Origin: Macrostomum lignano
Lineage: Eukaryota
NCBI GenBank assembly: GCA_002269645.1
Contig: NIVC01001009.1
Coordinates: 215,402 to 279,401, forward strand
Direction of reading: 5' to 3'
Length of the DNA: 64,000 nucleotides
Below, piece after piece: positions 2,830 through 44,638 of this stretch. Position 1 is the first letter of the stretch. Every line of letters begins with the position of its first letter. The notes beneath the pieces were generated by a model. The model did no database searches. It had not been told where the DNA came from and saw only the letters and a list, made by a program, of their open reading frames with translations. The translations under genes and the position numbers were made by a program.

Positions 2830-3588
2830 GGGACAAGAAGAGAGGTCTGAACGAGAAGAGAGGTTTTGGGAAGGAGAAGAGAGGTCTGGGGAAGGAGAAG
2901 AGAGGTCTGGGGGAGGAGAAGAGAGATCTGAACGAGAAGAGAGGTCTGGGGAAGGAGAAGAGAGGTTTGAACGAGAAGAGAGGTCTGTGGAAGAAGAAGA
3001 GAGGTCTGGGGAAGGAGAAGAGAGGTCTGGGGGAGGAGAAGAGAGATTTGAACGAGAAGAGAGGTTTGAACGAGAAGAGAGGTCTGGGGGAGGAGAAGAG
3101 AGGTCTGAACGAGAAGAGAGGTCTGAACGAGAAGAGAGGTCTGGGGAAGGAGAAGAGAGGTCTGAACGAGAAGAGAGGTCTGGGGAAGTTGAAGAGAGGT
3201 CTGAACGAGAAGAGAGGTCTGGGGAAGTTGAAGAGAGGTCTGAACGAGAAGAGAGGTCTGAACGAGAAGAGAGGTCTGGGGAAGTTGAAGAGAGGTCTGA
3301 ACGAGAAGAGAGGTCTGGGGAAGGAGAAGAGAGGTCTGAACGAGAAGAGAGGTCTGGGGAAGTTGAAGAGAGGTCTGAACGAGAAGAGAGGTCTGAACGA
3401 GAAGAGAGGTCTGGGGAAGGAGAAGAGAGGTCTGAACGAGAAGAGAGGTCTGAACGAGAAGAGAGGTCTGGGGAAGGAGAAAAGAGGTCTGAACGAGAAG
3501 AGAGGTCTGAACGAGAAGAGAGGTCTGGGGAAGGAGAAGAGAGGTCTGAACGAGAAGAGAGGTCTGTTGAAGGAGAAGAGAGATCAAT
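2830..3588. repeat. Purine-rich minisatellite, 18/21-bp units (AACGAGAAGAGAGGTCTG / GGGAAGGAGAAGAGAGGTCTG)
   Basis: Direct tandem repeats visible; they generate the spurious ORFs 2805-3659, 2811-3587 and 2987-3592. Confidence 0.95.
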
Positions 3589-5104
3589 TTGAAGTTATCA
3601 TTAGCAAGATTTTAGTTAAGCAAACGCAACTTAAAGCTTCAACTACTAACTCCTTATGATTAAGCCTTAATCTTCAGTTAAATAGACGCAATAATGAAAT
3701 GATTTATTTCATTAATTTGTTTTACTGCGATCAAATAGGCCGAAAATGGTCGGCTGGATTTATCGCGCCGTTTTGATTTTGAAAAATTCATTGACGCTTA
3801 TCGCTGAGCCGGGCTCCCGGGCGAGTGGAGAGGCGCTGACGACGAGCTGGAAAAGGGCAGATTTTTTATCTTTATAAATCGAATTGTCCAATGCAAACAG
3901 AACCATAGGGCCAACAGATTGCTCTCTATCTCCGTCTCGTATCAGTCCTAGGACTTCATTTAACAGGCTTAGTAACTTTGCTTTTTTATAATATTCTTTA
4001 TAAAAAGCGATTTTCTAGTCTAATATATGCCCAGTTAAAAGGCTCAATATGGCAGGTTTAATTGCATAGCAAACAACTTTAAAACTGGAGAGAGGGGGGC
4101 GAATGAAATGCCCATATGCCTCCCCAATTAAATCCGCCTTAGCAAAATGGCATCATCAGTCAGTGATTAAAGCTGCACTGGAAAGAAATTATTTGAATTA
4201 GGAAGGCGCCAAAGCCAAGGATTCAAGTTTATCAGTTCGACCCTGGCATTGCGGCTGGCTACAGAAAGGCAGAGAACGGAAATTGTGAAAAAGCGGCATA
4301 CCATCATCCACTATGAAATCCACCCACTTTATGGAATTTAGGACTTATAATGAAGCTTTGCTGTTATGAAAGGGGATGCTTGAGAGGTGAACAGAACCGT
4401 TTTCAAATGATGAAATGTAAAATTTGCGCACAGCTAGCATGCAACACGGACAAAAGCCGCACTTGGCTGTCACATTATTTTGGCAGGAAAACAGAAGTGT
4501 AAACTCTCCGGCCCCAACAGATCCCCAGTCAGTTCTGCAGGGAGCAGGGAGCAAACCAATTTGTTTAACAACACCAACAAAACTAATAAAACTTCTTTGT
4601 TGGCGGCGCCCGGGTCTCTACAAAGGCCGCGGCGGGGGTTGCAATAAAGAAATTCTCGGAGACCAAGGCTAAGAGGACTGATAAGTGTCATTCATCGAAA
4701 TGAACTCAGGCCGAGATTTTGATTCCCACAATTTTCTTGAAAGTTTTCCGCATTTCACTGGTTAATAGCTCACCCCCAACTGTAATAACACGGATTGCCG
4801 AAATTGCACTTCCATCATTCCAATGTCCTCAAGTACCAACACCTGTTCTTCTGGCAAACCTTGGGACCAAAATATCAAACATAATTTCCTCTTCTATCGC
4901 AGGGTTTTTTGTGTTTTTTGCTTTGCTGGTTTGGTCGTGTTTTCTTTTTTACAAGTTTCTGAATAGACAGGATGTAATAGAGGCAAGCAAATAGATGCAT
5001 TGCCGAAATCAGAAACAAAAATTCAGAGTCTGTCAATGCGATACAGATGGAATGAAAAAGATCCATCGTTTCTTTCAGTGTAACAGGCAAAAAGAGAATC
5101 GGAC

Positions 5105-9297: not shown

Positions 9298-9690
9298 CTC
9301 CTTTGTATGTTGATTTATAGTTCAATTCTGATCGTGCTGCTTAATTTGTATTTTGTAAGTTTCATTAATCAATTTTTTCGAGCATCTGTAGAATTTATGC
9401 AGTCTCCTAAACGTTTAAGTGGGCTTCTTTGGTTCGATGTATTAAAGCTTCTAGCCTAATAATGCTACTAGGAGTAGACTAAATAAAAAATAGGGTAAAA
9501 TTGGTTAATCAAAATTTATTTTATCCTTCATTTGATCGATATGACTGGTGATGTGTTGTGAAAATATTTATTATTCTGTAGGCTGAATCAAGAGTTTGTA
9601 AACTGTATCAAACCTGAAAATATTATTCTTATAATAAATTAAGCGAAAAACAGCAAAAATAGATATTTAGGCTGAAGTAAGTATTCAGGC

Positions 9691-12600
9691 ACTACTATAT
9701 GAACCCGAACGGCGCGATTTTGGAGGTGAGGTGGGTGTCAACCCTCCTCGCCTCTCATTGGCTGGCGCCCCGATCACCAGGCGATCGATACGCGTATCGA
9801 TATCGGCGACTCGAACCCGCGACCCTCCCCAGCCGCAGGCGCACCCACCGATACCAGATCCCAACAAATCAATCAGATCCCAAATCAATCAGATCCCAAA
9901 TCAATCAGATCCCAAGCGCACCCTCCCGAGCCGCAGGCGCCCATGCAGCAGGCGCCCATGCCGCAGGCACCCCGAGTGTACACTCTCCCGATATGTGTGT
10001 ACACCGATATGTAGTCATCGATACGGGCCTCTTCCCCTCTCTCACCTACATCTCAACTAGCGAAATCGAACCCAGGTCGCGCCCATACTAGGACACTACA
10101 CGGTTGTGGGGTATAGGGAGCGAGAAGTTTCAACCCTAACGCTGACGCAGCCCTGTACAGTGAGAGTGTACGGGCAGAGAGGGGTGGGGCGGACAGAGAA
10201 CCAGCCACTAGGTTGTTATACTGTTGAAGCATAGGGAGCGAGAAGTTTTAACCCCGATGCTGACGCAGCCCTGTACACTGAGCGTGTACGGGCAGAGGGT
10301 GGGTGGAAAGAGATGTGAATAACACAGCCTGCTGCAGGAGCCGGATAGAGAGGCGCATGCTAGGACAGAGAGGTAGTGTGAGTCACACACACCCCACAGA
10401 GAAAGCCATACAGAGGATAGAGAGCTCCCTCCCCAGTTGCAGGGGACAGAGGGCAGGCAGGGTATGCAGGGGCATGCGAACCGTCAAGGGGCCACGCGAG
10501 GATAGAGTGGAGGAGCAGAGATGTGTTTGGACAGAGAGCCAGCCACGTGTGCGTAGTGTGAGGGAACAGAAACATATGGAGCAGGAGGGAGATAGGAAGC
10601 AAACGCGCAGGGTAAGGGAGCCATGCAGCAGGGAGCAGTGTACAGTGAGACACGGGCAGGGGTGGAGCCGTGCGTGGACAGAGCTGAACGGCACGGTCAG
10701 CTGCAGGAATAGGATGATAGAGAGGCGCGGAGGGGGACAGAGAGCAGTGTGCAGGGTAGGCAGCCACGCAGGCTGGGGAACAGAGAGGCGCGTGTCAGCC
10801 AGTTACAGCCCGGGACAGAGAAGTATGAAGGGGGCCTGGGACAGAGAAGTATGAAGGGGGCCTGGGACAGAGTTGCGAGCAAGGCACAGAGAGAGGTAGG
10901 GTCCGGTAGCTATGTATAGGCAGGGACCCACGCGAGGGCAGGACAGGGCATGCAAGGCATGCAAATTACATGCAAGGGCAGTGAGGTGTGCGCGGAGGGA
11001 GACAGAGAGCAGTGTGTAGGGGTAGGTAACAGCAAACTTTAGTAGAGGCGCGTGCGGGGACGGAGAAACCAGTCTGAGCGTACAGAGACGTTACAGAGAG
11101 GTACACAAACAGAGACCAAAGCGGGCAGAGCACGTGTAGGGACAGAGACGTGAGGGAGAATAGACCAAAACACGCTATGTATTTTCAAAAGTTGGTTTTA
11201 GTGCAGCATATTTAATAGCGGGTAGTATAATAGTATGTACATAGTAGGTATAATGGTAGTAATAATAGTAAGTATATTAGCCCAAAAGGTAGGCTAAAAC
11301 AGGCTAAACTGTGTGTACGCATCCTCATCACCCCACAAGCCCCCTCTCCCGCCAGACTCACTCTTCCATACCCTCCTGTATTGCTGTATGAAGGAAAATA
11401 TAGTGTAAAAATACAGATCTTAACCGTCAGACCGCTGAAATCAGGGCACACTAGAGGGGTTTCGGGGTCTGCATGCTCTATGTAAGCTGTTTCAATTATG
11501 TTTTGAAAAAACTAGGGGCTTAAATACAACGTTTTATTCAAAAAGTAGGTTATTTTAATGAAATAGCTGACACAATCATTGTCGAGAGTAGAAATTTTTA
11601 TAAGAAACCAGGCATTTTAGCAAAAATAAACCTTCAAACCACATAAAATTGAATAAAAAGCAGACATTTTCAATTATAAACCGCAAGTATTTTAATAGAA
11701 AAGTAAGCAAACAAGGCACAAAACCAGCAAATTTTACCTTTTTATTTTAATGTTACTGATAAGGTAGAGAGTAGAAACTTGTGAGCTGTACGGAGTTAGA
11801 AAGTATTAACCATTATGTATCGTATGAATTATTAGTTCAGTACCAGCCATTGGTCAAGCGAGCATTTATGAAGTTATTACGAGTGATGAAGGGATAGAGA
11901 GCTATATACAGGAAGACAGTATCCTTCTAAACCACCACGAACAGATTGCTAATAGAGATAAGCTTTGTCTGTGTGCAGTATGAGTAAGCGAAGGCGGGGC
12001 AAATACTTTTCCACATGCCGGACAGAACAGTATTGTGCTAGGATTTCTCTCGAAATCACGGTACGTTACTAGTTTTTATCACACCATCCAGATGCGTCAA
12101 CTAGTCAGCAGTAGTCATTTATATGTTATTAGAACTTACAAACCCAGGTCAAGTAAATATTACAAAGAGTATATTACGTACACACGCCAACTCCGAATAC
12201 CAAGCCATACTAGTCTACTTGCAGTGCTCCTGGAGGGAAGGGACGGCGGGGTGTACATCCGGCAGGGTGGGCGTCCAGCGAGTGTACATCTGACAGGATG
12301 GGTGTTCAGCAAGTGTACATCTGACAGGGTGGGCGTTCAGCAAGTGTACCTTCAGCGTCGAGTAGGTGTACACCCGTCAGTGGGGAACTCCACCCCTCCC
12401 ACCAATGTCGTGTGCATGCGGTTAGTCAGTATAGTGGTGGGGTAGACGGTGCAGGAAGGAAACCCAGATGCTGACGCTGCCCTGTACAGCGAGCAACCAG
12501 CCCCCTGTAGCAGGAGGGGGACAGAGAGTGCGTGGAGGCAGTAGGAGATAGAGGACGCTACCCGGCATGTCGCAGCACGCGGCGCGGGACAGAGGCAGTG

Positions 12601-15600
12601 TGTAAGTCACCCCCGCGGAGAGAGCTCCCCTGGCAGGAGGCGCGGGACAGAGAGGCGGTGAATCACACCCCACGGAGAGAGCCGTACAACGAGCTTCCCC
12701 ACCCGAGTCCGGTAAATATTACAGAGTATTACGTGCACACGCCAGCCCTGAATACCAAGCCATACTAGTCTACCTGCAGTGCTCCCAGAGGGAAGGGATG
12801 GTCAGGAGTTACACACCAAGAATGCATTCATACAAAGAGTACACAACTCGAGCCCAGACACCAAGTCACAGTCTACTTACAGTAGAGATGGTAGATTAAT
12901 AGCAAGATTATATTACAATTAGACCTCCCTAGCACATGAGGAGTGAAATTCAATAATAATTGAATTCAATAATAATACAACATTTAGACGTAGTAATTTA
13001 ATTACAAAATACCACTAACACTGAGCCAACGAATTGTAGGTTACAAAGGAGTTGCCACTCATATGGAAAGCCAGTATAATGCAGGTGTGTATTATTAAAA
13101 CATAGACAAAAACGATGCAGACGTATATACACACTATTGATTTTGTACATGTACATTTCGGCATATTACCACACATCGCGGGCACATATTATATATCGGG
13201 GGATAGGTTAAAATACACACATCGTAGATGTAGAAGCAGACACAATGCAGAAAATTATGATACGAGTGTACATATTAGTGCGTAAAAGTATCATATTATG
13301 ACACCCTGTAGCACATATTGACATAATGCAGGGGAAAATATTGACAGAAATAGTACACAATTGTAGAGGTAACAACCAGCCAACTAGTAAGGGCATCCAG
13401 CACTTGTTCAGGTTTTTTTTTATTTCGAGACGAGTGTCATGCCCCCGCAAGAGATCTTATCAGAAATTTGTTGAACTCCACTGCAACTCTCCCCAGAACC
13501 TCCAAATGGGAGTTTTAACACTTGAGGGGATCCCGCTCAGTGTACAGTGCGGACGGAGAGGGGTAACAGAAAGCGCTGCATCAGACCGCGGAGCTGCATT
13601 CCTCCCCCGAGGTAGGCGCGTCAGCTCCCACTCCTCATTTAACCATCAAGTAAACTAAAGAAGTCAAGCAGAAAGCCTTACAATCACCCGCAACCAGCAC
13701 AAGTAAGAGTACTTTCCACTAGAGAGCCATAGTGCAAGATTCGCGAGCCAAGTTGAAGAAGCACACCAAATTACACTAAAGACATATGTATTAAAAAGCA
13801 TACCGGCACCTCTACAAAAACACAGTATGTACCGATTAAAGTTGCTTTTGGTGCAGTGTATTTAATAAAAAGCAGGTACCTAACACAAAAGTAGGCATCA
13901 ATGCAGTGCACGGGCTAAACTGTATTTACAAACGCAGGGCAACGAACTACACACAATGTAGCGCATAGACATAATTGTACACATAAATGTACGCAATCTC
14001 CGGTATATAGGACCAAATGTACGCAAATGTACACAATGCACACAAACACACACACACTCAGGCGCATCCTGCAGCGCATCCTGCAGCACCGATCGCCGCA
14101 GGCGATGGCGCCATCGGCAGGAAGCTCTTGCTGTGAATACGCCTGAGTGTGTGTGTGTTTGTGTACATTGTGTACATTTGCGTACATTTGGTCCTATATA
14201 CCGGAAATTGCGTACATTTATGTGTACAATTATGTCTATGCGCTACATTGTGTGTAGTTCGTTGCCCTGCGTTTGTAAATACAGTTTAGCCCGTGCACTG
14301 CATTGATGCCTACTTTTGTGTTAGGTACCTGCTTTTTATTAAATACACTGCACCAAAAGCAACTTTAATCGGTACATACTGTGTTTTTGTAGAGGTGCCG
14401 GTATGCTTTTTAATACATATGTCTTTAGTGTAATTTGGTGTGCTTCTTCAACTTGGCTCGCGAATCTTGCACTATGGCTCTCTAGTGGAAAGTACTCTTA
14501 CTTGTGCTGGTTGCGGGTGATTGTAAGGCTTTCTGCTTGACTTCTTTAGTTTACTTGATGGTTAAATGAGGAGTGGGAGCTGACGCGCCTACCTCGGGGG
14601 AGGAATGCAGCTCCGCGGTCTGATGCAGCGCTTTCTGTTACCCCTCTCCGTCCGCACTGTACACTGAGCGGGATCCCCTCAAGTGTTAAAACTCCATTTG
14701 GAGGTCTGGGAGAGTTGCAGTGGAGTTCAACAAATTTCTGATAAGATCTCTTGCGGGGGCATGACACTCGTCTCGAAATAAAAAAAACCTGAACAAGTGC
14801 TGGATGCCCTTACTAGTTGGCTGGTTGTTACCTCTACAATTGTGTACTATTTCTGTCAATATTTTCCCCTGCATTATGTCAATATGTGCTACAGGGTGTC
14901 ATAATATGATACTTTTACGCACTAATATGTACACTCGTATCATAATTTTCTGCATTGTGTCTGCTTCTACATCTACGATGTGTGTATTTTAACCTATCCC
15001 CCGATATATAATATGTGCCCGCGATGTGTGGTAATATGCCGAAATGTACATGTACAAAATCAATAGTGTGTATATACGTCTGCATCGTTTTTGTCTATGT
15101 TTTAATAATACACACCTGCATTATACTGGCTTTCCATATGAGTGGCAACTCCTTTGTAACCTACAATTCGTTGGCTCAGTGTTAGTGGTATTTTGTAATT
15201 AAATTACTACGTCTAAATGTTGTATTATTATTGAATTCAATTATTATTGAATTTCACTCCTCATGTGCTAGGAGGTCTAATTGTAATATAATCTTGCTAT
15301 TAATCTACCATCTCTACTGTAAGTAGACTGTGACTTGGTGTCTGGGCTCGAGTTGTGTACTCTTTGTATGAATGCATTCTTGGTGTGTAACTCCTGACCA
15401 TCCCTTCCCTCTGGGAGCACTGCAGGTAGACTAGTATGGCTTGGTATTCAGGGCTGGCGTGTGCACGTAATACTCTGTAATATTTACCGGACTCGGGTGG
15501 GGAAGCTCGTTGTACGGCTCTCTCCGTGGGGTGTGATTCACCGCCTCTCTGTCCCGCGCCTCCTGCCAGGGGAGCTCTCTCCGCGGGGGTGACTTACACA

Positions 15601-18512
15601 CTGCCTCTGTCCCGCGCCGCGTGCTGCGACATGCCGGGTAGCGTCCTCTATCTCCTACTGCCTCCACGCACTCTCTGTCCCCCTCCTGCTACAGGGGGCT
15701 GGTTGCTCGCTGTACAGGGCAGCGTCAGCATCTGGGTTTCCTTCCTGCACCGTCTACCCCACCACTATACTGACTAACCGCATGCACACGACATTGGTGG
15801 GAGGGGTGGAGTTCCCCACTGACGGGTGTACACCTACTCGACGCTGAAGGTACACTTGCTGAACGCCCACCCTGTCAGATGTACACTTGCTGAACACCCA
15901 TCCTGTCAGATGTACACTCGCTGGACGCCCACCCTGCCGGATGTACACCCCGCCGTCCCTTCCCTCCAGGAGCACTGCAAGTAGACTAGTATGGCTTGGT
16001 ATTCGGAGTTGGCGTGTGTACGTAATATACTCTTTGTAATATTTACTTGACCTGGGTTTGTAAGTTCTAATAACATATAAATGACTACTGCTGACTAGTT
16101 GACGCATCTGGATGGTGTGATAAAAACTAGTAACGTACCGTGATTTCGAGAGAAATCCTAGCACAATACTGTTCTGTCCGGCATGTGGAAAAGTATTTGC
16201 CCCGCCTTCGCTTACTCATACTGCACACAGACAAAGCTTATCTCTATTAGCAATCTGTTCGTGGTGGTTTAGAAGGATACTGTCTTCCTGTATATAGCTC
16301 TCTATCCCTTCATCACTCGTAATAACTTCATAAATGCTCGCTTGACCAATGGCTGGTACTGAACTAATAATTCATACGATACATAATGGTTAATACTTTT
16401 TCAACTCCGTACAGCTCACAAGTTTCTACTCTCTACCTTATCAGTAACATTAAAATAAAAAGGTAAAATTTGCTGGTTTTGTGCCTTGTTTGCTTACTTT
16501 TCTATTAAAATACTTGCGGTTTATAATTGAAAATGTCTGCTTTTTATTCAATTTTATGTGGTTTGAAGGTTTATTTTTGCTAAAATGCCTGGTTTCTTAT
16601 AAAAATTTCTACTCTCGACAATGATTGTGTCAGCTATTTCATTAAAATAACCTACTTTTTGAATAAAACGTTGTATTTAAGCCCCTAGTTTTTTCAAAAC
16701 ATAATTGAAACAGCTTACATAGAGCATGCAGACCCCGAAACCCCTCTAGTGTGCCCTGATTTCAGCGGTCTGACGGTTAAGATCTGTATTTTTACACTAT
16801 ATTTTCCTTCATACAGCAATACAGGAGGGTATGGAAGAGTGAGTCTGGCGGGAGAGGGGGCTTGTGGGGTGATGAGGATGCGTACACACAGTTTAGCCTG
16901 TTTTAGCCTACCTTTTGGGCTAATATACTTACTATTATTACTACCATTATACCTACTATGTACATACTATTATACTACCCGCTATTAAATATGCTGCACT
17001 AAAACCAACTTTTGAAAATACATAGCGTGTTTTGGTCTATTCTCCCTCACGTCTCTGTCCCTACACGTGCTCTGCCCGCTTTGGTCTCTGTTTGTGTACC
17101 TCTCTGTAACGTCTCTGTACGCTCAGACTGGTTTCTCCGTCCCCGCACGCGCCTCTACTAAAGTTTGCTGTTACCTACCCCTACACACTGCTCTCTGTCT
17201 CCCTCCGCGCACACCTCACTGCCCTTGTATGTAATTTGCATGCCTTGCATGCCCTGTCCTGCCCTCGCGTGGGTCCCTGCCTATACATAGCTACCGGACC
17301 CTACCTCTCTCTGTGCCTTGCTCGCAACTCTGTCCCAGGCCCCCCTTCATACTTCTCTGTCCCAGGCCCCCCTTCATACTTCTCTGTCCCGGGCTGTAAC
17401 TGGCTGACACGCGCCTCTCTGTTCCCCAGCCTGCGTGGCTGCCTACCCTGCACACTGCTCTCTGTCCCCCTCCGCGCCTCTCTATCATCCTATTCCTGCA
17501 GCTGACCGTGCCGTTCAGCTCTGTCCACGCACGGCTCCACCCCTGCCCGTGTCTCACTGTACACTGCTCCCTGCTGCATGGCTCCCTTACCCTGCGCGTT
17601 TGCTTCCTATCTCCCTCCTGCTCCATATGTTTCTGTTCCCTCACACTACGCACACGTGGCTGGCTCTCTGTCCAAACACATCTCTGCTCCTCCACTCTAT
17701 CCTCGCGTGGCCCCTTGACGGTTCGCATGCCCCTGCATACCCTGCCTGCCCCTCTGTCCCCTGCAACTGGGGAGGGAGCTCTCTATCCTCTGTATGGCTT
17801 TCTCTGTGGGGTGTGTGTGACTCACACTACCTCTCTGTCCTAGCATGCGCCTCTCTATCCGGCTCCTGCAGCAGGCTGTGTTATTCACATCTCTTTCCAC
17901 CCACCCTCTGCCCGTACACGCTCAGTGTACAGGGCTGCGTCAGCATCGGGGTTAAAACTTCTCGCTCCCTATGCTTCAACAGTATAACAACCTAGTGGCT
18001 GGTTCTCTGTCCGCCCCACCCCTCTCTGCCCGTACACTCTCACTGTACAGGGCTGCGTCAGCGTTAGGGTTGAAACTTCTCGCTCCCTATACCCCACAAC
18101 CGTGTAGTGTCCTAGTATGGGCGCGACCTGGGTTCGATTTCGCTAGTTGAGATGTAGGTGAGAGAGGGGAAGAGGCCCGTATCGATGACTACATATCGGT
18201 GTACACACATATCGGGAGAGTGTACACTCGGGGTGCCTGCGGCATGGGCGCCTGCTGCATGGGCGCCTGCGGCTCGGGAGGGTGCGCTTGGGATCTGATT
18301 GATTTGGGATCTGATTGATTTGGGATCTGATTGATTTATTGGGATCTAATATCGGTAGGTGCGCCTGCGGCTGGGGAGGGTCGCGGGTTCGAGTCGCCGA
18401 TATCGATACGCGTATCGATCACCTAGTGATCGGGGCGCCAGCCAATGAGAGGCGAGGAGGGTTGACACCCACCTCACCTCCAAAATCGCGCCATTCGGGT
18501 TCATATAGTAGT
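9691..18512. mobile_element. 8.8-kb fold-back (palindromic) inserted element with 6-bp TSD; no intact enzyme ORF seen
   Basis: 9691-14064 is the reverse complement of 14140-18512 (mirrored ORFs in the track are identical, e.g. 12035-12445 vs 15754-16164). Ends are ACTACTATAT...ATATAGTAGT; TCAGGC lies at 9685-9690 and 18513-18518; unique AT-rich flanks on both sides. Confidence 0.9.
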
Positions 18513-18674
18513 TCAGGCTTAGAGCCAAGCCTCTCTAATAAGTTATATTTATTATACAGAAGCCTGGGCAACCCAAAGAGAAACTTATATCATTATAAAA
18601 TAGTGTGTAGTCCAAAACACATATGCACAGTTGCAACAGAACAGAAGTTATTTCGAACAATAAATTTTCTTAAT

Positions 18675-19553
18675 TTATTTACTCTTCTCTCCGGTGTACA
18701 ATTGCTTCGTTGCGTTTCGTAGCTTCCGGATGTCCTTGGAGAACTCTTGCTCCTTTAGTAGCTCATCGTGCTGAATTTCCAGCTTCCTTTTGTGCTCTTG
18801 GAGCAGCCTTGTCTGCTGAATCATGTGCAGTAAATCTTTACGAAGCTTTCTATTCTGCAGCTTGACGGTGTTCGAATGATCTATGAGAGACGTGATAGCC
18901 TCCTTGTATGCTTCCTTGGAAAGCTGGTGAACTTTCTGTTCGGATTCCTCTTGAAACTCTCGCTTTTCGCGCATGAATTTTGCCTTGAGCTGCTGCAGCT
19001 GCTCAGAATGCTGAATTCTCAAGTTCTGGGCCTCTTTCTCCAAATGCTTGATCATTTCAGCTTGCTCATCCTTAAGCTTTTTGAACTCAGCAAGTTCATC
19101 CAACTCGTCGCGCGCTTTTGACAGTTCATTTTGCTTCGAAAGTAGTGTCTGTTTTAATTCTTCCTTCTGGTAACTGTACGCTTCAAGCATCTCTTCTCGC
19201 TGTTGTAGCAAAACCTTGATTTCGTGCTCGTTATAGTCGCTGAGCGTAATCAATGCCTTCTGTCTCTTGTCGGCGCGTTTCTCCATGTAGCCCATGTATT
19301 CATGACTTTCAACTCGAATTCGCTGAGACTCTTCCTGGAGCCATTCGTTTTCACTCTTCAATTCCGAAAGCTTCTTTTTAGCATCTTCAACTTCTTTGAT
19401 AACTTTTGCCAATTCTTCTTTTAACTGCTGCTCTTTGTCAACGACTTCCTCTTGCGGCTGTTCTACTTCGGGTGCCACGGATTCATCAGCTTTCTTGGCG
19501 CTCTTATCTTTTCCTTTGCTTTTTCCTTTCTTTTTTCCTTTCTTTGGTGGCAT
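18675..19553 (-). CDS. CCDC166: Coiled-coil domain-containing protein 166 (DUF4515/BBOF1 family), intronless
   Basis: 292-aa ORF with MPPKKGKK start; ENEWLQEESQRIRVESHEYMGYM, EHSEQLQQLKAKFMREK-type and NRKLRKDLLHMIQQT segments align by eye to CCDC166; AATAAA on the minus strand at 18674-18679 and 18548-18553. Confidence 0.82.
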   Translation of the reverse strand: MPPKKGKKKGKSKGKDKSAKKADESVAPEVEQPQEEVVDKEQQLKEELAKVIKEVEDAKKKLSELKSENEWLQEESQRIRVESHEYMGYMEKRADKRQKALITLSDYNEHEIKVLLQQREEMLEAYSYQKEELKQTLLSKQNELSKARDELDELAEFKKLKDEQAEMIKHLEKEAQNLRIQHSEQLQQLKAKFMREKREFQEESEQKVHQLSKEAYKEAITSLIDHSNTVKLQNRKLRKDLLHMIQQTRLLQEHKRKLEIQHDELLKEQEFSKDIRKLRNATKQLYTGEKSK

Positions 19554-20385
19554 TTTGCTATGAAAATTTGCGCAAATTGGAGTAAAAGTTTAGAAAAATG
19601 AATTGAAAAGAAAAGTTAAAACTATATAGTAATACCACACTTTTAAGAAGGGTTTTACTTGTTTTATAACAAACCATGTAAGTTATAGAAAAAAATATAA
19701 GAAACATTATTACTACAGTAAAAAAAACTATAAAAAAATAGAAGTAACGTATGCTTTGTTTTAACAGTTCAAAATTAGTTACATATTTAATTTCGATCTT
19801 TCCTGTAAAGAACTTCCTTCAACTGACCTGTGTATTGCAAGTGCACAGTAGAAATGCCAATGCCCTAACTCTTCCACTCTCCAAATTAAAGAAATTATAT
19901 TATTTTTCATTTTGACGTGTTTACTACCAAGTATTTGAATGGTATATTTAGAATATATAATATACGTACAATCATTTTAATCATCTATGTATCTGAAAAT
20001 AAATTATTAGTGCAGAAAATTTCGCGAAAGGGTAATTAGGTACAATTGAACCTTGGATAGGAGTAAAATTTCTGGAATTAAATAGGACCAAGACTCCAAG
20101 TTTTGTTGGGATTCTGGGTTTGATGATAATATGATATAGAAATTATAGATTCAGACACTTTCTGTTAATATAAAAGCAAGTTGTGGTTGAGCAAGATTAA
20201 AAAATCTTTGAGATTAGATGTGGTAGCATAAAAAGGTTGATTAAAATCCTAACTTCAAATGATCAGTATTTTGGTTTTTACCACAGTTAATAGTTTATTA
20301 TATAGTTTCTCACCACAATGCTATAGCAAAGTAAGTCATTACTTAGCTTCAAAGTAAGTCAAAGCTAAAAATATAAGTTTTTTTC

Positions 20386-24925: not shown

Positions 24926-25759
24926 TGATCATGGTGGCTTAAGAGGGTGGTATAAAAGATAGGATTTTTTTGTCTTATATTAAATTTAGAAAAAAAGAAG
25001 ATCTTTCCATAGACATAATTGTCATGAGCCTTAGAGCACTAGACTAAAATATCAACTTATATTCTAATAAGAGAGAAAGAGATGTTTGTCAGCAGATTTA
25101 TGACTCAACCCTCATAGATAGTGCATAAGTAGCATATAGATAGCTCATAAATTGTCCTTAAAATATTTTGGCATAGAACATACATGCGCAACTTCTGAAA
25201 TTACGCTGGCCGTGCGACTTAGTTTTCGATAAAAAATGCGACTTACCTATGAAAGAGCCAAGCAAAAACTTTAGGTAAACGGCAGGAGTAACTATGACCA
25301 TATTTTTAAAGCTAAATGCCTCGCCAGCTAATTAGTGCTGCGTGCAGATTCCGCGTTTTTATAACAGCTAATCAGTGTCATCTAGTGGCGGCATGAAGCA
25401 ATTAGTAAATTGTCAGTACAGTGTAGTGAGCATACTACAAAAGTCATGATTCATGAATGTCCAGAAGTAAGTGAAGTGAATACAGTGTGACCTATAGCTC
25501 AAGAACGATTTGCTAGACGATTTGGCATGGAAGATGAGAGCCCTGATTCAGATGGCTCATCAGATGCAGAATACGAATCCAGTAGAGATACAAGCTGTGA
25601 AAACCCACAGATTTTTAAACCACTGAATTCTAATTCCCGGAACTATTTTTGCATAGATTCTAAATTTGAAGTCATGCTCAAACAAAAACTTGTTAACAGT
25701 TAGGAAAAAGGCAAAGATGGGAGTAATGCATGTTAAACTAAGATTTGAGGCCTTTGCAA

Positions 25760-26420
25760 ATTCTCTCCATTCCTCAATCTTCTCATCCTCTTTTTCTTTT
25801 CTCTCTCATCCCTTATCCCTTCTCTCTTTCCTCTCCTCTCTCCTCTCTTTCCTCTCCTCTCCTATCTCTTCTGTCTCCTCTCTACATTCTTATCTCTCCT
25901 CTCGTCTCTCTCCATTCCACTCTACTCTCTCATCTTATCTTCCCTCTCGTCTCTCTCCACTCTACTCTCTCATCTTATCTCTCCTCTCTTTTCTACTCTC
26001 TCATCTCTCCTCTCATCTCCTCTTTATCCTCTCTTCTCTCATCTACTCTCTCCTCTTTCCTCTCTTCTGATCTCATCCATCATCTTTTCTTTCCTCTTTC
26101 CTCTCATCTCCTCTTCTCTCTCATCTCTTTTTCCTCCCTCAGCTTTTCTCTCCTCTTCTATCTTTTCTCCCATCGCATCGCTCGCCTCTCCTCTGTTTGC
26201 TTATCTCTAATCTTCTATTCCCTCTACTTTGAAGTAAGAAAATATGCACATATTTTTGCTGAAGATAAGAGGAGAGAAGAGGGCATTGAGGAGAAAGAGT
26301 AGAGAGAAAGGGGGAGAAGAGAGGAGAGTAAAAATGAGAGGAGAGAGAAGAGGGAAAAGGGGGAGAGAGAGAAGAGGGGAGGCAAGGTAGAGAAGAAGAG
26401 AGAGATGAGAGTTGAAGAGA
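25760..26420. repeat. CT-rich then GA-rich low-complexity tract inside the hAT element
   Basis: Pyrimidine tract 25760-26230 followed by purine tract 26270-26420. Confidence 0.8.
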
Positions 26421-26489
26421 CACCAACCTTGCTACTCGTAGTTAGGAAGTTTCAAAGAACCCGAGGGGCGAGGGCCAGATAGAGGGGCT

Positions 26490-26516
26490 TCGCGAGCCGG
26501 AGTTTGCCAACCCCTG
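26490..26516 (-). mobile_element. Orphan hAT/Charlie-like terminus nested in the hAT element
   Basis: Minus strand reads CAGGGGTTGGCAAACTCCGGCTC, a typical hAT-Charlie TIR start; partner end not found. Confidence 0.4.
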
Positions 26517-26674
26517 CTCCAGAGTTTAGGAAATCAATGGGAAACTGTTGACGCGGGCTTCTGATTTCAAAGATCTTGTCTGTGGTTGAAGGCTTCTATT
26601 CTGTTTTTGCTCTCCTGCCACACTTGCACCTACTACCCCCTGATTGCCTCTAATTGTGACTTACTTCCCTCTTA

Positions 26675-27345
26675 TTGCGACTTAGTTGCTTCTTTTTGCG
26701 ACTTACCTAATCCTTTTTGCGACTTACTTAATCCTTTTTGCAACTTACATAATCCTTTTGCGACTTACCTAACCCTTTTACGACTTACCTAATCCTTTTT
26801 GCGACTTACTTAATCCTTTTTGCGACTTACTTAATCCTTTTGCGACTTACCTAACCCTTTGTGACTTACCTAATCCTTTTTGCGACTTACCTAATCCTTT
26901 TTGCGACTTACTTAATCCTTTTTTCGACTTAGCTGATCCTTTTGCGACTTACCTAACCCTTTTGCGACTTACTTAATCCTTTTTGCGACTTACCTAATCC
27001 TTTTTGCGACTTACCTAACCCTTTGTGACTTACCTAACCCTTTTGCGACTTACTTAATCCTTTTTGCGACTTACCTAATCCTTTTTGCGACTTACCTAAC
27101 CCTTTGTGACTTACCTAATCCTTTTTGCGACTTACCTAATCCTTTTTGCGACTTACCTAATCCTTTTTGCGACTTACCTAACCCTTTTGCGACTTACCTA
27201 ATCCTTTTTGCGACTTACCTAACCCTTTTGTGACTTACCTGATCCTTTTTGCGACTTAGTTTGCTTCTTTTGCGACTTACCTGATCCTTTTTGCGACTTA
27301 CCTGATTATTTTTACAACTTAGTTTGCTTCTTTTGCGAATTTTTT
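26675..27345. repeat. 22-24-bp tandem array (TGCGACTTACCTAATCCTTTT) inside the hAT element
   Basis: Roughly 30 units, each carrying the element's subterminal TGCGACTTA motif. Confidence 0.9.

Positions 27346-29839: not shown

Positions 29840-44638
<14,799 letters not shown>

Follow-up and report, generated by a model that had tools for sequence, protein, structure and literature searches.

What machinery could copy and insert a DNA element of nearly 9 kb that carries no recognisable gene? The question is raised by a locus of Macrostomum lignano (assembly GCA_002269645.1, contig NIVC01001009.1), lying in the 64,000-nucleotide stretch that was analysed as a whole and is called here the window (positions 215,402 to 279,401 of the forward strand). 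Window positions 9691-18512 form one element of 8,822 bp, a near-perfect palindrome that begins with ACTACTATATGAACCCG and ends with ...CATATAGTAGT. The 17-mer ACTACTATATGAACCCG stands at both ends, with 2 matches in the window against none in 100 shuffles. The arms, separated by a spacer of 69 nt, are 99-100% complementary and only 11 substitutions and 9 small insertions or deletions (indels) apart. The hexamer TCAGGC flanks the element on both sides (coordinates in Table 1). The host locus is present in three copies in the assembly, two of which lack the element: at one empty site the flanks are joined by a single hexamer, TCAGTC, and at the other they abut. The original prediction had read these ends as those of a Polinton/Maverick-type derivative, folded back about 4.4 kb from one end of a 15-25-kb parent. 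The results below argue that the element is probably a gene-less snap-back satellite. One class of integrated unit (class A) would probably supply the polymerase that copies it, and another (class B) the proteins that integrate it and perhaps package it.

The gene-less palindromic units of the type found in the window are referred to as class C. Across the genome (764 Mb), the 17-mer ACTACTATATGAACCCG has 40 matches whereas a control has none. All 16 paired copies are flanked by a duplication of exactly 6 bp (lengths of 2-15 bp tested), at 14 distinct sites, three of the copies being one insertion on duplicated contigs. The same length was found in 19 of 20 further end pairs (3-10 bp tested; two of these pairs overlap the first set), the sole miss being paired with an internal end. 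A genome search with the arm, in which 32 of 200 candidates were scored, gave many more copies, 95-100% identical and with other tips. Among 38 stretches examined, 32 have two ends with a 6-bp duplication (6 bp alone tested) and the other six lack an end; the 32 bounded stretches represent at least 23 distinct palindromic sites, 22 of 23 being 8.1-9.4 kb in size. Older class C palindromes exist at 85-93% identity, and copies that are 85-100% identical retain the spacer. The palindrome with ACTACT...AGTAGT ends and a 6-bp duplication is real, repeated and young. The same 38 stretches also include one-armed forms, shorter at 3.4, 4.1 and 5.1 kb, and others that are rearranged; the junctions of the one-armed monomers differ between sub-lineages, which would favour their origin by deletion from palindromes. 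Small same-end derivatives of 1.1 kb and 3.2 kb carry 6-bp duplications (L203:136-1279 and L197), and a 0.46-kb pair of same ends (L216:9327-9789) is without an exact duplication.

Elements of the CACTA/EnSpm group have 5'-CACTA...TAGTG-3' ends and a 3-bp duplication. This identity was rejected for the window element, as the C at position 9690 that precedes ACTA is a base of the duplication and varies among copies, and the duplication is 6 bp long.

The same ACTACT ends and 6-bp duplications delimit two classes of gene-bearing unit. In class A, matches to PF03175, the protein-primed DNA polymerase (pPolB), fall between paired element ends. The A1 units measure 8.7-9.6 kb, with terminal inverted repeats (TIRs) of ~0.9 kb, and contain pPolB, matched by Pfam in two frames (E 1.8e-17 and 4.9e-13), and a few further open reading frames (ORFs). 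The frame breaks recur in all copies among those listed. Four GT..AG joints were found in the polymerase region, in 3, 3, 1 and 2 of three sequencing runs from three studies that were guessed by software to be RNA; no run is recorded as RNA, and the runs consist of contigs from other individuals. Since none of the four joints occurs in the run guessed to be DNA, the polymerase gene of class A is transcribed and spliced. The 12 pPolB units bounded by duplications all lack an integrase or virion match better than E 0.007, the best stray ones being at E 0.007 and 0.01. One A unit (C1090) is a partial copy-back with a 4.69-kb inverted repeat.

Class B holds the integrase and capsid genes. The B1 units are ~10.5 kb long with ~0.66-kb TIRs and encode a Fic protein (E 7e-14), an rve integrase (E 7.5e-10) and a major capsid protein. 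ORFs that are ATPase-like and protease-like are also present, with weak Pfam support (AAA_14, E 0.016; Peptidase_C48, E 0.073), and both are homologous to ORFs of canonical Polintons, one of which is described below. A further ORF is, judging by its position, a putative minor capsid protein. The major capsid protein is predicted to be a double jelly roll: a model built on a 100-sequence alignment reached a pLDDT of 95.9, and a fold search with it retrieved Vp54 of PBCV-1 (E 1.3e-18, TM 0.59) and the mavirus capsid protein (E 1.9e-15). The fold search decided this identity, the sequence having no match in the PDB and no relative in viral_contigs; a homologue carries the name F54H12.2-like. At 10 loci the capsid reading frames are intact and do not differ. 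Each of eight integrase/capsid units lacked a pPolB match at E 0.01 when queried with two polymerase classes. The Fic-domain gene of B1 (L053:796-1599) has no match in five B2 units, the second-family counterparts introduced below, and one B1 unit contains a P-element/THAP9-type transposase (L144:3255-6197). In another unit (L138, G000:C1329), one B end is short of exactly one ACT unit while the 6-bp duplication is still exact, a single case that would fit a missed jump-back.

The core Polinton genes are therefore split over two ~10-kb classes, and a second family, which has ACTACG ends of its own, shows the same division. Its polymerase class, A2, is represented by one bounded unit of 9,698 bp (pPolB 61-62% identical to that of the first family), and its class B2 by four bounded units of 9.8-10.2 kb (capsid 87-88% identical); one B2 unit (C1313) is a partial copy-back with a 3.66-kb inverted repeat. 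An A2 unit contains an ORF of 1,558 codons (L073:2110-6783). Among the matches listed, no pPolB match lies within 25 kb of any of the 62 B-type capsid loci, and no capsid match lies that close to any of the 76 A-type pPolB loci; this test is weaker than the unit-by-unit one, its control having reached only 2 of 12 distant capsid loci. No unit combining pPolB, integrase and capsid with ACTACT ends was found among the elements examined, and no further coding segment either among 20 unpaired ends followed inward or in four long units (C56, C4, C2210 and C558). In the genome searches, 95 of 448, 66 of 222 and 32 of 200 candidates were scored, and 100 of 214 end matches were listed. C4 and C2210 are B units with inserts, and C558 is a C-type end with LTR (long terminal repeat)-retroelement-like ORFs inside; in L149, tandem ORFs of this kind lie behind a C-type end. 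C56 (L141-L142) is an 18.4-kb unit with B-type TIRs, in which the C spacer and a portion of the C arm lie beside the right TIR; it also has nested inserts, one of which matches window positions 25179-27075 at 96%.

The original prediction is borne out in part by these data. Arms, duplications and empty sites confirm the palindrome with its terminal motif and 6-bp target-site duplication, and neither pPolB nor integrase is present in class C, as had been proposed. The link to Polintons holds, as units bearing pPolB or integrase share the ACTACT ends and 6-bp duplications, which also settles the caveat that the ends read 5'-AC. Attribution of the duplication to a retroviral-type integrase is supported as well. 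The satellite reading is likewise supported, A and B units being its putative helpers.

How such a satellite might be copied can be outlined. Protein-primed strand displacement, on which the scheme is based, is established in adenovirus, and the jump-back model belongs to the same background. The pPolB of A would prime at ACTACT and displace one strand. A displaced C strand would immediately fold on itself, and the resulting 4.4-kb hairpin would contain an entire origin, so that no panhandle between short TIRs would be needed. Copying through the loop would rebuild the 8.8-kb duplex and make the arms alike in each round, and the integrase of B would insert the product. With 8-9.4 kb, class C is close in size to A and B, and one capsid would suit all three. 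Template switching by nascent strands near the origin would shuffle tips between classes and build a mosaic arm, and transcripts across the palindrome would form long double-stranded RNA (dsRNA). A perfect triplet repeat is not required, given the ACTACG ends of the second family.

Several signs of shared replication are compatible with this scheme. When 17 other palindromes were compared with the left arm of the window element, 994 substitutions were present in both arms and 61 in one, which indicates that the arms are copied from each other. In 130 ACTACT ends, nt 1-7 are invariant (nt 1-6 being fixed by the search pattern), and A1 and B1 are alike in their first 32-34 nt only. The 142 distinct ends comprise 60 terminal 27-mers, of which 12 occur in at least two classes and three in A1, B1 and C. 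In 103 A/C-type ends, nt 8-27 are 51% identical compared to 89% just inside, and 118 of 171 site pairs fail the four-gamete test; no internal donor cassettes for the tip variants were found in A1, B1 or C. The hypervariability may come from template switching, from selection or from both. Some units bear two different tips and yet have an exact duplication. Between the invariant ACTACTA and a conserved TTTT, the tip is a 20-nt hypervariable, recombining stretch. In two chimeras (L067 and L068), 4,212 nt of C arm are joined to a 5'-truncated pPolB through the same junction at two sites. Together with the copy-backs of A and B2, these chimeras show that the replicons fold back and recombine.

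The arm itself is a mosaic of A-end and B-end pieces with ~2 kb of undetected source. Nucleotides 1-301 of the arm match A1, nt 2557-2971 the TIR of B1, a 47-nt segment at nt 3813 matches A1, and nt 3517-3885 resemble weakly a long A1 TIR (identities and E values in Table 1); older class C copies have an A-type TIR piece at the place of the B-type piece. Such a mosaic is not a simple fold-back of the first 4.4 kb of a parent. Contigs of the RNA-guess runs cover the arm without GT..AG joints, and none among those listed bridges the centre of the palindrome, which carries no weight either way. On the arm, T>C changes make up 74 of 92 differing places in run X13 (A unit, 11 of 66; Fisher p 6e-16) and 39 of 77 in X14 (A unit, 15 of 108; Fisher p 8e-8). 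No such excess was found on the arm in X10 (5 of 49) or in the DNA-guess run X2 (5 of 48). Of six T>C sites checked, five carry T in every one of the 65-66 genomic arms examined. The excess is the pattern that adenosine-to-inosine editing of a long dsRNA hairpin would give.

It should be noted that several points weigh against the snap-back satellite. The shorter non-palindromic forms (3.4, 4.1 and 5.1 kb) are integrated too, so that neither hairpin nor size is required, and the identity of the arms could come from gene conversion within the chromosome. Sampling of tips was biased toward the first 17-mer used in the search, and the T>C excess is seen in two of the three RNA-guess runs only. 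For some 2 kb of arm, no source was detected in A1, A2, B1, B2 or a canonical Polinton, and, with the candidates scored as stated above, an unsplit parent may exist. Frameshift-free stretches of 716 and 588 nt exist in the arm, and one ORF of 117 amino acids is kept in 11 of 15 copies; a small gene may be present, the 16 and 12 substitutions in these stretches being too few for a codon-position test to decide. Dependence of class C on a helper is what we infer from its lack of genes, and free linear DNA, terminal protein, particle and mobilisation in trans are all predictions made from contigs alone.

Other explanations were weighed against the same data, and are taken from the strongest to the weakest. 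That class C is an ordinary non-autonomous transposon of foldback type, moved chromosomally by the B integrase with no free hairpin while gene conversion keeps its arms alike, seems unlikely to us. All copies seen are indeed chromosomal, and the short non-palindromic forms move too; however, the ends of class C are A-type, its tip variants recur unchanged in A and B units, and the chimeras with the pPolB unit and the copy-backs of A and B2 are easier to account for with shared extrachromosomal replication.

Class C could also be the required third segment of a multipartite virus, carrying a non-coding RNA or an origin, rather than a parasite. Its high copy number, the transcript cover along the arm, its size near that of A and B and the spacer kept in copies 85-100% identical would agree with such a role. 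By contrast, no family was found by Pfam on four arm ORFs, of 104 indels that a copy has in both its arms, 85 cause a frameshift, and large parts of the arm are deleted or replaced, some deletions being common to whole sub-lineages of class C. The spacer shows no RNA fold beyond chance (z -0.63) and no Rfam family at gathering level, mir-3149 alone being matched, far below the gathering score and from the CA/TG runs. No such palindrome occurs among the ACTACG units fetched, although no search was aimed at it. A required segment is therefore an improbable interpretation.

Nor is it probable, and here our confidence is low indeed, that each of the three classes decayed on its own and now relies on complete canonical Polintons. 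A complete one is present in the genome: C2529 is 18,773 bp long, with AGTAGT ends, a 6-bp duplication, and pPolB, rve and capsid in one unit. Its ends are not ACTACT, though, its proteins are 29-34% identical to those of B, and its pPolB was not reached from that of A by tblastn. The repetition of the split in the ACTACG family and the intact, identical capsid frames of B in 10 loci also speak against decay. In or beside canonical Polintons, ORFs match TBP (PF00352), one of them with a deoxynucleoside kinase domain (L164:5516-6595 and L172:1839-3245).

The single copy-back of the original prediction, in which an autonomous Polinton of 15-25 kb would have folded back 4.4 kb from one end, has become very unlikely. 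The terminal motif, the 6-bp duplication and the true copy-backs of A and B2 are in line with it, and the 2 kb of source-less arm would allow an unseen parent. Yet 59 matches to the B1 end, 100 listed matches to A/C ends and 20 unpaired ends gave no element with the same ends and all core genes, the genes being split over the two ~10-kb classes instead. The arm, as a mosaic of A-end and B-end pieces, is collinear beyond nt 1-301 with neither class. What stands of the proposed copy-back origin is the snap-back satellite; the simple fold-back of a parent's first 4.4 kb does not. We give practically no credence to a long-read or assembly artefact. Fold-back chimeras are a known artefact and no short-read contig was shown to bridge the centre, but the flanks differ and have exact duplications, empty sites exist, and 23 sites share the same centre or derived deletions.

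A bolder version of the snap-back satellite is conceivable, although we hold it doubtful: a live, segmented, integrating double-stranded DNA (dsDNA) virus, whose polymerase and integrase/capsid segments would be packaged and inserted separately while swapping 20-nt tips. This virus would be parasitised by a capsid-sized snap-back genome, which would have entered the germline dozens of times, would make edited dsRNA carrying helper-end sequence and, as an inherited defective-interfering element, would restrain the helpers.

The units resemble Polintons/Mavericks (adintoviruses) in their 6-bp duplication, terminal triplet repeat and long TIRs, and in the pPolB (PF03175), rve integrase and double-jelly-roll capsid of the putative helpers, whose ATPase- and protease-like ORFs would add to the likeness. 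They are unlike them in the distribution of genes over two ~10-kb units, in the 5'-(ACT)2 or ACTACG ends, in the spliced pPolB and in the lack of any gene in the window element. Vertebrate Polintons are described with 5'-(AG)3 or 5'-(AGT)2 end motifs, 6-bp duplications and intact ORFs that are intronless (PMC8097293). Polintons are given as 13-25 kb, and one survey requires the core genes within 20 kb (10.1101/2023.08.22.554363), as does a second (10.1101/2024.01.15.575659), a rule by which split forms would be missed. The latter reports pPolB beside a TIR without integrase at 10 loci of C. elegans, treated as remnants (10.1101/2024.01.15.575659). Replication modules are said elsewhere to be possibly mobile alone, in a text whose available part has neither 'segment' nor 'bipartite' (10.64898/2026.10.13.758929).

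Units with matching termini, one with pPolB, are also known from bidnaviruses, which are bipartite (PMC8502044), and from Drosophila Vesanto virus, with up to twelve segments and similar terminal repeats (PMC8363768); A and B share nt 1-32 only. These are single-stranded DNA, parvovirus-like viruses with 3-6-kb segments, for which the available text describes neither integrase nor double-jelly-roll capsid (PMC8502044, PMC8363768), whereas here every unit integrates, the capsid is of the Polinton-type double jelly roll and an rve integrase is present. Snap-back defective viral genomes, as defined in PMC13506859, share with class C a full-length palindrome with helper ends and no genes. According to the same source they are mainly transient products of RNA viruses (PMC13506859), unlike class C, a long-lived germline-integrated dsDNA lineage whose mosaic arm is not collinear with the helper. 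The killer/helper linear plasmid pair of yeast, pGKL1 and pGKL2, is likewise made up of two dsDNA units (9 and 13 kb) that complement each other and are relatives of these viruses; the plasmids are cytosolic and form no particles, and the opening of the abstract makes no mention of integration (PMC13348850). Foldback (FB-type) and miniature inverted-repeat transposable element (MITE)-like transposons (mentioned in PMC6431247) have very long inverted repeats and no genes and are moved in trans, but here a pair of Polinton integrase and polymerase, with 6-bp duplications, is the putative helper in place of a cut-and-paste transposase. Among titles and abstract openings, no split Polinton or palindromic Polinton satellite was found; Repbase and the founding paper of 2006 lie outside this set and may list non-autonomous Polintons.

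Taken together, these comparisons indicate that the element works like a snap-back defective genome and a bidnavirus-type segment while being a member of neither. Nor is it a Polinton by the definition that places polymerase and integrase in one element, outside which split forms fall. If true, a two-part integrating Polinton in two families would be a living case of replication and virion modules travelling apart, a separation that has been put forward for the mosaicism of polisuviruses and the step to bidnaviruses. The palindrome would provide indirect evidence of free, strand-displaced replication, which is hard to show for animal Polintons, and the snap-back satellite would account for a class of giant gene-less palindromes. 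The expressed putative helper and the distinctive tips put free genomes, particles and small RNAs within reach of observation.

Table 1. Features of the palindromic element, in window positions.
Feature	Position	Strand	Remark
Left target-site duplication TCAGGC	9685..9690	.	Sequence and empty site
Invariant terminus ACTACTA, 3-nt tandem repeat	9691..9697	+	Predicted protein-priming origin and integrase end (function inferred)
Hypervariable mosaic tip, nt 8-27	9698..9717	+	Variants common to A and B units
Homology to outer TIR of pPolB (A1) unit, 82%	9691..9991	+	
Left arm, without recognisable gene	9691..14067	+	
Arm stretch without detected source (against A1, A2, B1, B2, canonical Polinton), except one 32-nt B1-TIR match	10027..12140	+	
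Homology to TIR of integrase/capsid (B1) unit, 71-72%	12247..12661	+	A-type TIR piece here in older copies
Weak match to inner part of long A1 TIR, E 2e-4	13207..13575	+	Includes 47-nt 98% A1 match at 13503-13549
Non-palindromic spacer of 69 nt, bordered by (CA)n/(TG)n runs	14068..14136	.	Predicted hairpin loop
Right arm, reverse complement of left; ends AGTAGT (18507-18512)	14137..18512	-	
Right target-site duplication TCAGGC	18513..18518	.	

Beside the element, a host ORF of 304 codons on the reverse strand (18675-19589) matches DUF4515 (E 2.8e-14) and stops ~160 bp from the right duplication; read-through from it would run into the palindrome. The other inverted-repeat matches in the window, at 31225-31601 and 39700-39890, are long simple-repeat tracts in opposite orientation.

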